64,000 nt of DNA from Yuukianura sp. NJ FZ-2021 (GCA_046563655.1 CM102290.1:9362001-9426000); one strand, 5' to 3'; counted from the stretch's first letter, positions 23,601 to 29,525 are shown. The notes: generated by a model from the letters alone, not told the origin. A program made the numbers and translations.

Positions 23601-26600
23601 ATCGCATGTTGTCTGCGGGAATGAGAATTCGCACAACTCTCGTCGCTGCCATTTACAAGAAATCTCTCGTAATTTCCAGCATGGCTAGAAAAGGTAATTG
23701 AATGAAATAACTATCGGCGAATTCTCGAACGATTGATGATAACATCTTCTATTTACTTTAATTTAGACACCACTGCGGGAGAGATTGTGAATTTGGTAAA
23801 CTTCAAATTAAATCGTCCAATACTATGCATATAAACTGAACTAAAGTTTTGATTTTGTCCCGGACAGATGAGTGTGGATGCGCAGCGATTCATGGAACTC
23901 ACAACGTATATCAACATGTTGTGGAGTGCTCCACTCCAAATTCTCCTGGCAATGTACTTCTTATGGGTTCGTATTTTTCTAATAGTATTGATTATTGAGA
24001 TTGAGATAAACCAGACTTTTAGTCCACGGAATGTTGCAGCGCTCTGGTTTCCATTGACTATAAATGGTTTGGAAACTACTAAGCTACCGATTTGTACTTC
24101 ACAGGGAACCCTTGGTCCATCGGTATTAGCCGGGTTGGCCGTGATGATTTTATTGGTTCCTATGAATGCTATAATCGCTTCGAAAACGAAAAACCTTCAA
24201 GTCAAACAGATGAAGTTCAAAGATCAACGTGTGAAACTCGTCAATGAAATTCTCGCAGGGATGAAGGTCCTGAAATTGTATGCCTGGGAGACATCTTTTG
24301 AAGAGCAAGTTGCTGCAATTCGTAACCAGGAAATGCGTGTTCTGAAAACTGCTGCTTATTGGAATGCTGGTGCTGCGTTCTTGTGGACTTGTGCTCCATT
24401 TTTGGTAAGCAAAACAAAATGATGGTTGTCTTTAGATTTTGTTGCCAAAGTCATGCATGAATTTTAATCTATGCACCGCCTTAGGTTGCTGCCGCCAGCT
24501 TTGCCACGTTCGTTCTAATTGACCCTGCAAATATTTTGGATGCCGAGCGGGCATTTGTAGCTCTTTCGCTTTTCAACATCCTTCGGTTTCCGATGTCGAT
24601 GCTGCCGAACGTCATTACCGCGCTTGTTCAGGTAATGCTGCTTTAAATTCAATTATCCTAGCTAGACCTTGCGACTTTACGAAAATAACTAAAGGAAGCT
24701 GAATTCATTTGAGACTAGAGTTGTTGCTCTCTTCCATTTTATTTTTCGTTCGTTCTTTTCAGGCCAAAGTGAGTCTTACGCGGGTTAATCGTTTCATGAA
24801 TTCGGAGGAAATCGATCAAAAAGCAGTAACGCACGACACACATGAACGTAAGGAACTTCTTTCTAGGTATTCGTGCTCAGGTAATCGTTCATTCAATTAT
24901 TTTCTAATTGCAGGAGACCCAATTGTCATTGAGGATGGAAAGTTTTCATGGGATTCCGAAACAACCGTATTGGATGAAATAAAATTGAGAGTTCAGAAAG
25001 GAACGCTCGTTGGTGAGTTTCAAAAGGAATACACGTCTGGAAGATGATTCTGAATTTTACTAAATCAATTGTTAACGATACCGCCGTTTGAATTTACAGC
25101 GGTTTGCGGCGTTGTCGGTAGTGGGAAATCAAGTCTGCTTTCGGCCATCCTCGGAGAAATGCAGAAGGAAAAAGGAACCGTGAATACGATCGTATGAACT
25201 CCTTACAACTTCCTCAATGAGACTACGTACTTCATCAAAGAACTCTCTTAACACTGGAATTTCTTTTGCAGGGTAGTATTGCCTATGTCCCGCAGCAAGC
25301 CTGGATCCAGAATGCGACTGTCAAAGACAATATTTTGTTTGGGAAGAAGGAAGTTGTGAGTACTTACAATAAAGTGGTGGAAGGTTGTGCACTACTGCCA
25401 GATCTTGAAGTCTTGACTGCCGGAGACCAAACGGAAATTGGAGAGAAGGTACAGTTTTTAACACTGCGTGGATTTTACGCGAATGTTTTTGATGATGAAG
25501 GTTTACTGACACAATTTCACTTTTAGGGTATCAATCTTAGTGGCGGTCAAAAACAACGAGTGAGTTTGGCCAGAGCAGTATACAATGATGCTGATATTTA
25601 CCTGTTGGACGACCCTCTGTCTGCAGTGGATTCACATGTTGGGAAGCACATCTATGACAAAGTTTTGGGTCACAGAGGAATACTTCGCCAAAAAACTCGA
25701 ATCCTGGTGACTCATGGACTCTCATACCTGCCCGATATGGATCAGATTATAGTAATGAAAGACGGAAAAATTTCTGAGATCGGGAGTTACGATGAGCTAC
25801 TGACTAACGCTGTAAGTAATATTGAACTTATCAGATTCAGCCGGTGCTGCAAGGTTTTGAGCGACGTTTGTTTGAATTGCAGGGGGCGTTCTCGGAATTT
25901 ATAATGCAACATATTGGTACTTCAGTTGAGGAAGGGTTGGACGTCGACGCAGGAGAGCGTGAAGTGTTAGAGCATTTAACAACGTCGTTGGCATCTAAAA
26001 TGGAAGATCTCAATAACTATCCTAAAGCAAAAGCAGCAGTCCTTCGGCAACTTTCACAGGTACTGTTTTTCGCTGCAACTTACTCCTTCTTAATTACTAA
26101 TTACTTATGAATTTTCGGATTTAAAAAAAACTAGGAGAGCGCACGAATCGGCTCAGCCCAGCGTGAACGTCGTTCAAGCCGTAGCATATCAGTGGAAGCA
26201 GAGAGAGATAGAAAATCAGAAGTTGGAACTCCAGTGAAAAAGGAAAAGGAGAAATTGATTGAGGAGGAAAAGTCAGAAACCGGAAGTGTAAAGTTTTCAG
26301 TCTATGTCCATTACCTGAAGTCAGCGGGGATAACACTCACGTTTATTACATTATTCTTTCATATAGCATTTCAAGGTGAGAAATAATTCAACAGGAATCC
26401 AAATTAATGAAAGAAAGTCTAACAGAACGTTTATACGTAATATTCCATTTAGGTTTTGCCATCGGTGCCAATATGTGGCTATCGGCTTGGGCTAATTCTA
26501 ATGAAGGACGACAACCTAATGATACTCAACCGGCGTCGGAACGGGACATGTACCTGGGTGTATATGCAGGGCTAGGGCTTGCGCAAGGTAACATGTGGAA

Positions 26601-29525
26601 CAGAATTTTGAACTGCCCAACCTGAGTTGGAAGTACACGCCAACGCAGCACGCTTTTTTATATCCTAATTTGTCCATAAATACTTTCGATAGTGGTGGTG
26701 GAAAACTAAAACAATGTAGTCTAACCACTTAACTTTTGTTGGAAGCTCTTACTCTTTTGATTGCGGTCGGCACGATAGCCTTCGCAGCACTCAAAGCCTC
26801 TACGCTCATGCACCGTGATATGTTGCGAAATATGCTGCGGTCTCCCATGTCATTCTTTGACACGACCCCACTTGGAAGAATTGTGAATCGATTTGCCAAG
26901 GATATTGACGTGCTGGACAACTACCTCTGGGCCATCTTTCGACAATTATTCAGCACTTTATTCGGAGTAAGAAACGCTTACACGACAAGCACTGAATTAA
27001 CTCCGCGGGGATTTGTATTTCTGGCTTTTCTTGATTCTTATTTAACCTTTTGCTTGCTTGTATTCAGTAGATAGTGCTGCTGCTTATATTGCCCGTAAAT
27101 GTCGTTGCACTTTGTATAACTCGAACTATTTCCTTTGTTGAAATGTTCACTTGACTGTTTTAGCCCTGACGAGTTTGATTGGGAGTCTTGCTCTGTTCAA
27201 AGCTACCATCATCTCTGCCAGTACTACACACAACCTGATGTTAGCGAACATAGTGAGAAATCCGATGTCGTTCTTTGATACGACACCACTAGGACGAATC
27301 CTAAATCGCTTTTCAAAGGACGTCAATGTCGTGGATAATGAACTATCACAGATCTTTCGGGCATTTCTTTTTTGTTTCTTGGGGGTGCGTCATTTTTAAT
27401 TATATGAACCTCAACTTCTATCTTTTCTGAGTTTTGTCAAGGAAAGCTAAAGTTCTTTAGTTTCGTAGCTTCTTAGTTCTGTCAGTCAGGAATTGTTCTG
27501 GTAGTTAGCATTTGGAGTGTTGCTTTTGTTTTATATAATGTTCGACTGAGTAATACAGCTTTTCTGCTTCACAGGTTGTCGCCACTTTGGTCGTCATCAG
27601 TTACACTACTCCAATTTTCATGACGGTTATTGTCCCAATTGGAATAATATACTTCATCGTACAACGGTTTTATGTTGCCACAAGTCGACAACTAAAACGA
27701 CTTGAATCTGTAAGCCGAAGTCCAATTTACTCTCACTTTGGAGAAACCATCGCTGGAGCATCAACTATCAGAGCATATAGAATGCAGACGAGATTCACTC
27801 AAGAATCCGAGGCCAAAGTTGACTTTAACCAGATTTCGTACTATCCATCCATCGTATCCAACAGGTAAGATTTGTTTTGATTGAGTAATTGTAATAGTAA
27901 TAGTATTATAATTTTAGTTATAATAATAATAACCCGAACAATTAATAATGATTAACAGAATTATCTTGCGTTAAGTTCTTAAGTTCTTCTGTACTTGCAA
28001 TAGGTGGCTCGCCGTTCGGTTGGAGACGGTAGGAAACTTCATTGTGTTTTTCGCTGCAATTTTTGCTGTGAGTGGAAGGTCGGGCCTCGATCCAGGACTT
28101 GTAGGATTATCCATTTCTTATGCCCTTCAAGTGACCCAAGTTCTCAATTGGTTGGTGCGAATGACGTCGGACGTGGAAGCAAATATTGTCGCTGTCGAGC
28201 GTATCAAAGAGTACACCGAAACACCACAGGTACGTTTTCTCGTATTGAGAATTTCAGGAAAACTTTTCTTAAATGAATTTGTATTTACAGGAAGCACCAT
28301 GGAATATTGAAGCAACCAAACCACCAAGAACCTGGCCGGAGTCTGGATGTATTGAAGTGGAGGATTACAGCGTACGTTATCGTGAAAACTTGGACTTGGT
28401 ACTTAAAAATGTGAATTTCAAGATCGATGCAGGGGAGAAGGTGAGAAAATTACAAGAAATACAGAGATTTCTAAAGCATGTATCATGCGAAACTTTAATA
28501 CAATTTCACCTTTAGATTGGAATTGTTGGACGCACTGGAGCAGGAAAATCTTCATTTACGCTGGCGATTTTCAGAATTATTGAGGTTTTTTACTTTTCAA
28601 AAGAACTTATTATTGAGCAACAACTATTGCAATGCTTCCTTTGATTTTTCAGGCCGCTGGAGGTCTCATTCGGATCGATGGCCGCGATATTTCGAAACTC
28701 GGATTGCACGAACTCCGAAGCAGGTTGACAATTATTCCACAGGTAGGTAATGCCAAGCGATGATAGTGATGGCAATGCGTTTACGTTGATAACAAAGTGC
28801 AGTTTGTCAAGTTAATGTGAATTAAGCGACTTAGTTATGCCTGAGTATTAAATAATTATTCGTAAACTTCATTGTTTAGGATCCAGTTCTCTTTTCCGGT
28901 ACTTTGCGAATCAATCTGGATCCATTCGGAGAGTACAATGATGTCACAATTTACCATGCTTTGGAACTTGCGCACTTGAAGGCATTCGTGCAGTCTTTGC
29001 CGACACAACTAGAACACCAAATTTCAGAAGGCGGTGAAAACTTGAGGTACGAAATCCGCTGGCCACAAATGAAATGTGAATTACCAAAAGATGATTTTTT
29101 TTAAAAATTAATTTTAGTGTCGGACAGCGGCAGCTGGTTTGCCTCGCCAGGGCATTGCTTCGAAAAACCAACATTCTAATTTTGGATGAGGCTACGGCGG
29201 CAGTGGATTTGGAAACGGATGATTTGATTCAAGAGACCATTCGAACGCAGTTTGAGACAGCCACGGTGTTGACGATCGTAAGTAGAACGCTTTTTTCTCC
29301 TGTTAACTGTCGTTAGTTTCTGCGTTTTTCTTCCAGGCTCATCGTCTGAATACCATCATGGACTCCACAAGGGTATTAGTAATGGAGGAAGGTCGTGTCA
29401 AGGAATTCGATTCACCGAAAAATCTTTTGCGAAAACGCGACAGCTTGTTCTACGGAATGGCTAAAAGTGCTGGCCTTGTGAGGAAGGACGACAACGGCAA
29501 TAATGGCGGTAAGAAGGAGCGATAA
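20668..29525 (+). CDS. MRP1: Long multidrug resistance-associated protein 1 (ABCC1/MRP1-like; TMD0-TMD1-NBD1-TMD2-NBD2), many short exons
   Basis: N-terminus [58 protein letters not shown]1 has [17 protein letters not shown] and [30 protein letters not shown] and NRWLAVRLE follow. NBD2 has [25 protein letters not shown] and AHRLNT. Stop TAA at 29523-29525. Confidence 0.95.
26746..26966 (+). other. MRP1 alternative exon A (221 nt), candidate mutually exclusive exon
   Basis: AG at 26744-45 and GTAAG at 26967. Encodes [74 protein letters not shown]. Confidence 0.88.
27164..27384 (+). other. MRP1 alternative exon B (221 nt), candidate mutually exclusive exon
   Basis: TAG at 27161-63 and GTGCGT at 27385. 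Encodes [74 protein letters not shown], with the same length and phases as exon A. Confidence 0.88.

Follow-up and report, generated by a model that had tools for sequence, protein, structure and literature searches.

The stretch of DNA analysed here, referred to as the window, comprises 64,000 nucleotides (nt) from Yuukianura sp. NJ FZ-2021 (GCA_046563655.1 CM102290.1:9362001-9426000) and encodes on its plus strand a long ABC transporter of the MRP1/ABCC1 type. Two tandem exons of this gene, referred to as A and B, encode alternative versions of one segment of the second transmembrane domain (TMD2). The pair is real and very probably functional as mutually exclusive exons, and we put at about 0.9 the probability that they are a homologous mutually exclusive pair representing a two-exon form of the variable TMD2 cluster of insect MRP1 genes. 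The gene and the exons concerned are the following.

20668..29525, plus strand: MRP1/ABCC1-type long ABC transporter gene, with 28 coding exons and 1552 amino acids (aa) in either isoform
26453..26587, plus strand: constitutive exon 19, ending in phase 1; an orthologous exon is present in the related locus L018 described below
26746..26966, plus strand: alternative exon A (20a), 221 nt, equal to residues 1027-1099 of bovine MRP1
27164..27384, plus strand: alternative exon B (20b), 221 nt, encoding the same segment as A
27575..27864, plus strand: constitutive exon 21, beginning in phase 0

The gene model was built by hand and reads from ATG to the terminal stop without interruption, whichever of A and B is included. 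Its product has the organisation of a long ABCC protein of the MRP1 type, comprising TMD0, two transmembrane domains and two nucleotide-binding domains; the nearest relatives are named MRP1, and the TMD0 and ABC_membrane domains of Pfam are both matched in the model. In a tree based on 1147 constitutive columns the protein joins the MRP1 of the springtail Allacma fusca, the closest named protein, with a FastTree support of 0.984 and in a position adjoining the insects.

Exon pair and its reading frame

Both exons are flanked by AG and GT, run from phase 1 to phase 0 and contain one open frame; re-reading of the sequence bore out the coordinates, the 221-nt lengths, the phases, the splice sites and the open frames given in an initial annotation of this DNA. 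A and B share 123 of their 221 nt and 36 of the 73 encoded aa, the loop motif being close to identical, and the Pfam ABC_membrane profile is matched by both alike at the same profile positions. Their codons differ at 48 of 73 third positions and at 19 second positions. The proportion of synonymous differences (pS) between them is 0.77, which amounts to saturation, and the proportion of nonsynonymous differences (pN) is 0.34 overall and 0.044 in a core of 20 aa. In simulations of neutral decay 156 to 644 of 5000 copies were still open, with a mean identity of 6-27 of 73 aa. Because the synonymous sites are saturated while pN is low, and because the simulations rarely keep copies open, the pair is not attributable to chance or decay.

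The initial annotation had also pointed out that 221 is not a multiple of three, so that inclusion of both exons or of neither would break the frame, and the modelled messages agree with this. When A is joined to B, a single residue of B is followed at once by a stop in the next complete codon, at 27167, and skipping of both results in a stop at 27703, with 7-8 junctions lying downstream of the stop in the two forms alike. The use of one exon per message is thus obligatory, since both or neither shifts the frame and leads to an early stop. Messages of the double-inclusion and double-skip forms would be removed by nonsense-mediated decay, and the choice of one exon per mRNA would swap most of transmembrane helix 13 (TM13), the cytoplasmic loop and the first half of TM14.

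A tblastn search of the gene model against the window revealed no third copy of the exon and no other duplicated exon, and the possibility of two tandem genes is rejected since every other exon is single-copy. The genome (98.7 Mb in 22 contigs) contains 15 matches to exon A, two of which are the A/B pair itself, and none of the other 13 matching loci has a second copy of the loop motif.

Conservation of the pair in related genes

Of 176 confirmed metagenome loci 80 were retained, and these include an orthologue, L018, which is the one orthologous locus with introns; these introns are too diverged to be aligned with those of the window. L018 shares 74% identity with the window gene over 113 constitutive columns and has a corresponding pair of exons, each 221 nt long, with order and phase as in the window. 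In comparison with L018 the values of pN/pS are 0.32/0.63 for A and 0.29/0.65 for B, and those of two constitutive exons are 0.14/0.78 (exon 19) and 0.14/0.74. The excess of pS over pN in A and in B argues that both exons are maintained by purifying selection, and the pair is kept in L018 and in Allacma.

Two gene models of Allacma fusca (CAG7831109.1 and CAG7831110.1) are isoforms of equal length which differ only in the 73-aa segment. The two models, proteins P0311 and P0013 of 1229 aa each, have 36 differing columns, all of which lie inside the variable segment. A third Allacma model is chimeric, with an A-like start and a B-like end, and for this reason the A-like exon is placed first in that species also. 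Two points tell against the overall reading as a mutually exclusive pair: A and B evolve faster than the constitutive exons (pN of about 0.3 versus 0.14), and the Allacma isoforms are predictions from gene models, one of them chimeric.

The 120 proteins of the first search include named isoforms from Nasonia, Microplitis and Armigeres, and in each of the three the segment occurs in no fewer than three versions with the same two boundaries; several mis-joined gene models of other animals hold tandem copies of it. The Diptera in this comparison are mosquitoes and Lucilia, the exon sequences of Drosophila not being among the matches. The proposal that the segment corresponds to the variable TMD2 exon of insect MRP is upheld, as the insect isoforms swap the same segment at the same boundaries. 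Tandem copies of the same exon have also been observed in three loci of another animal lineage (L023, L045 and L086), where the overlap of exon types points to three or more copies, each of them with the TM14 proline discussed below.

Splicing signals and predicted intron pairing

The following candidate control elements have been identified around the two exons.

26734..26745, plus strand: weak exon A acceptor, TTTTGTTGGAAG, identical over 12 nt in L018, with a candidate branch point at 26721-26725
27022..27035, plus strand: candidate selector in the middle intron, pairing with 27436-27449 over 14 bp at -17.0 kcal/mol, which would loop out B
27436..27449, plus strand: third-intron candidate for a downstream docking site, of the same topology as a 22-bp helix of L018 and of other sequence
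26624..26637, plus strand: weaker and doubtful candidate upstream element, pairing with 27014-27027 over 14 bp at -14.0 kcal/mol, overlapping the selector by 6 nt, which would loop out A

By a matrix built from this gene the acceptor of exon A is the third weakest of 28. In four constitutive introns no acceptor match of this kind was found when the window and L018 were compared in like manner, and of 1000 shuffled sequences 26 have a 10-nt match at some point of the intron. A conserved weak acceptor would keep exon A reliant on the help of a helix. The same upstream intron contains at 26626-26633 a repeat of the last 8 nt of the acceptor, a possible decoy (4 matches in the window versus 2.3 expected), and a GT-rich word of 9 nt common to 26694-26702 and to L018 1479-1487 (91 of 1000 shuffles), for which weak pairing with the 5' part of exon B is conceivable in both species.

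Docking sites downstream of the cluster have been reported for MRP1 (PMC6071210), and a general model of docking site and selector has been described (PMC4691838). The helix formed by the selector is the strongest uninterrupted intron-intron helix in the window, its strength being matched by 7 of 400 and 8 of 400 shuffles, and the selector holds the longest middle-intron word common to L018 (9 nt), which taken alone is not significant. In L018 a helix between introns 2 and 3 extends over 22 bp with -39.6 kcal/mol, a strength reached in 0 of 200 shuffles, and has a pairing probability of 0.99. The strength of the upstream helix is matched in 22 of 400 shuffles. An overlapping pair of helices as strong as that of the window occurs in 0-1 of 400 shuffles and in 2 of 600 real non-coding triplets, the overlap statistic having been defined post hoc. 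L018 has no counterpart of the upstream helix, and because of this absence the idea of bidirectional competing helices has been downgraded.

The likely mechanism would combine the frame safeguard with a helix between introns 2 and 3 by which B is looped out. According to the downstream docking-site model, B would be used by default, and pairing of the middle with the downstream intron would loop out B and place the splice donor of A close to exon 21. We put the odds that such a docking helix operates in this species at slightly better than even. Several results weigh against it. The intron 2:intron 3 helix of the window has a near-zero probability and neither helix appears in the whole-region fold; opening the downstream arm of the docking helix would cost about 6.4 kcal/mol; the helix loses significance once bulges are permitted (15 of 40 shuffles); and its sequence differs from that of L018. 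An extended intron 2:intron 3 duplex of 60 nt in the window is likewise rejected, 32 of 60 shuffles being as good.

The bulge-tolerant tests, the ensemble probability and the post hoc nature of the overlap statistic speak for the alternative that the helices of the window are due to chance and exclusion is achieved by frame, decay and protein regulators only. We consider this alternative the less probable of the two, though by no means negligible, since L018 has a very strong helix of the predicted topology, the strongest uninterrupted intron-intron helix of the window shares that topology, and an overlapping pair of such strength is rare both in shuffled and in real non-coding sequence.

Two further candidates have been set aside. 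Pairing of exon A with intron 3 is not a shared feature, as it is matched in 1 of 200 shuffles in L018 and in 27 of 200 in the window; in L018 itself, positions 1628-1640 and 2511-2523 form a perfect 13-bp helix of exon A with the downstream intron (1 of 200 shuffles), nested around the docking helix. Steric exclusion, which would call for a branch point no more than about 50 nt away from the upstream donor, is rejected, the middle intron measuring 197 nt in the window and 304 nt in L018; the lone early branch-like word of the middle intron (26997) has several AGs between it and the acceptor.

Origin of the duplication

Exon positions are converted to bovine MRP1 numbering by the addition of 1026, as checked on the alignment; the limits of TM13, and any role of the TM14 proline, are presumptive. 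In a tree of 31 exon rows B joins B of L018 (96/91), and the two lie within a clade (97/94) containing the second exon of Allacma, eight insect exons and one unnamed protein. Exon A has no firm neighbour, and A of L018 joins a single-exon paralogue from the genome of the window. The signal in this tree comes from few sites, mostly positions 11, 46, 66 and 71. Position 11 is Phe or Tyr in 15 of 15 exons of the B class and Ala, Ser or Val in 13 of 13 A-class or single-copy exons, the classes having been partly chosen on the tree. In the approximately unbiased (AU) test a clade of A with B is rejected under LG+G4 (p 0.02) and not under a mixture model (p 0.076), and the mixture model likewise does not reject a clade joining A and B with both L018 exons (p 0.19).

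These comparisons suggest that the A/B duplication probably predates the separation of springtails and insects. The initial annotation had left the two-exon state as either ancestral or convergent with the fly cluster; the exon tree with insect variants favours the former, with the moderate support given by the B class (97/94) and the AU values above. That the pair arose independently in this lineage and converged on the insect arrangement appears unlikely, although several findings speak for it. A, B and both exons of L018 share a Phe at position 64 and the loss of a proline, neither of which is seen in Allacma; the two AU tests with p 0.076 and p 0.19 leave room for such clades; A groups firmly with no exon; and independent duplications of MRP exons in different phyla have been reported (PMC6071210). 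Against it stand the nesting of the two B exons with the second Allacma exon and the insect exons, the rejection of the A+B clade under LG+G4 and the separation of the classes at position 11, with the reservation made above as to how the classes were chosen.

The proline in question, equivalent to P1087, occurs in 309 of the 321 distinct homologous segments compared. It is missing from both exons of the window, from both of L018 and from two paralogues of this genome that have a single exon copy. Both Allacma exons retain it, together with the tryptophan at position 67. Since neither Allacma exon has lost the proline, parallel loss or conversion must be assumed if the duplication is old. The two paralogues (L002, G000:C2, and L008, G000:C3) are sister MRP1-like genes (100/100) with one exon copy each, and have Arg and Gly in place of the proline. 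A tree of constitutive exons including the paralogues is mostly unresolved, and descent of the single-exon paralogues from the present gene cannot be read from it.

Taken jointly, these observations lead us to a tentative scheme, which as a whole we hold to be rather improbable. A two-exon A/B switch would have existed in the common ancestor of springtails and insects and grown into the insect cluster, a small versus an aromatic residue in TM13 marking the two classes; the proline would then have been lost in both exons here, in parallel or by conversion; and the choice of exon would be made by the conserved weak acceptor and the downstream docking helix, possibly in competition with the upstream helix.

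TM14 residues and the substrate pocket

In structures of ABCC1 the residues Q1088, M1092, S1096 and N1099 touch substrates (PMC12647609), and M1092 is part of a hydrophobic pocket of TM14 (PMC8267652). At these four positions exon A encodes Ala, Gln, Thr and Gly and exon B encodes Gln, Ala, Cys and Gly, so that three of the four (1088, 1092 and 1096) differ between the two. The corresponding residues are V, S, C, S versus R, A, C, S in L018 and Q, S, C, S versus T, G, C, G in Allacma. It is plausible that the A and B isoforms differ in substrate range, and the difference would lie in the hydrophobic substrate pocket. The lack of conservation of the pocket residues within an exon class across species counts against this.

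Emphasis had been laid in the initial annotation on Ala in A versus Gln in B at the site of human E1089, a residue which we take to affect the transport of anthracyclines. The mapping itself is correct, exon position 61 corresponding to bovine P1087 and position 62 to Q1088 (human E1089). The contrast is A/Q in the window, V/R in L018 and Q/T in Allacma, and the site is consequently rejected as a conserved determinant of the isoforms. Bovine MRP1 has Gln at this position, and the human E1089A substitution affects vincristine transport little (PMC12647609). The Trp and Ser at the neighbouring proline position, which had been regarded as a difference between the isoforms, are better read as a loss of the proline in both exons.

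It is very improbable that one of the two copies is dead or hardly ever used, for which A would be the likeliest in view of its low-scoring acceptor and its unusual residues at the start of TM14, since frame and exact length have been kept in A and B despite saturated synonymous sites, the pair is present also in L018 and Allacma, and even the weak acceptor is preserved base for base in L018.

Neighbouring features of the window

A multi-exon gene at about 15300-18400 on the minus strand, presumably related to phosphoglucomutase-2, lies head to head with MRP1. Also on the minus strand, 14205-14999 contains an open stretch of 264 aa with a Pro/Ser-rich middle and Cys-rich ends, which we take to be LIM-like, and exons at 29863-31842, which presumably encode a juvenile-hormone-binding or takeout-like protein, end about 340 nt from the MRP1 stop. 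A short tandem repeat with units of about 39 nt occupies 10597-10980. Further exons at 48561-51085 on the plus strand and at 55337-62486 on the minus strand presumably belong to FANCD2-like and plexin-like genes, respectively.

Relation to known MRP exon clusters

Variable internal exons of the MRP gene of Drosophila melanogaster (CG6214) were reportedly described by Grailles in 2003, and we take "exon 8" to be the name of this segment in Drosophila. The variable exon cluster of Drosophila MRP has a size of 8 (PMC6071210), and both the Drosophila exons and splice variants from Anopheles and Trichoplusia have been published (PMC4234516, PMC2680897). Nothing beyond this was found in PMC9013439, PMC10790352 and PMC3560195. 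Repeated duplication of MRP exons across phyla, with a choice guided by RNA pairing, has been described by Yue et al. 2017 (RNA Biol 14:1399), as cited in PMC6071210.

The pair of the window resembles the clusters of Drosophila and other insects in gene family and in the segment and boundaries, which agree with those of mosquito, wasp, beetle and other isoforms, and B groups with an insect class. It differs from them in having two exons instead of three to eight, in lacking a second duplicated exon and in the loss of the TM14 proline from both copies. Allacma fusca is similar in its two equal-length isoforms that differ only in the 73-aa segment, in the same order, and dissimilar in that its predicted exons both retain the proline and the tryptophan at position 67. 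The tandem duplication and the candidate downstream docking site are features in common with the metazoan MRP arrays controlled by RNA pairing (Yue et al. 2017, via PMC6071210). Exons 13A-D of C. elegans mrp-1 are likewise homologous and mutually exclusive exons of an MRP gene; unlike the present pair they are four exons of 156 nt, a multiple of three, and thus are without the frame safeguard (PMC4165533). No description of this cluster in a springtail was found in titles and openings of abstracts, a search that did not extend to supplements, the Folsomia genome paper or the full text of Yue et al. 2017.

The locus is thus best regarded as a known invertebrate MRP1 cluster in two-exon form, to which the current analysis adds a likely age of the A/B split, a conserved weak acceptor, a docking helix in an orthologue and a shared loss of proline. 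The importance of the finding is modest. Switching of MRP1 exons has already been published for flies, mosquitoes, moths, wasps and nematodes. The cluster is compact, with exon 19 and exon 21 about 1 kb apart, and would make an easy minigene for the pairing model. The pair supplies an outgroup for dating the insect cluster, and offers a simple system of two isoforms for asking whether the swap alters the xenobiotics that a soil animal can export.

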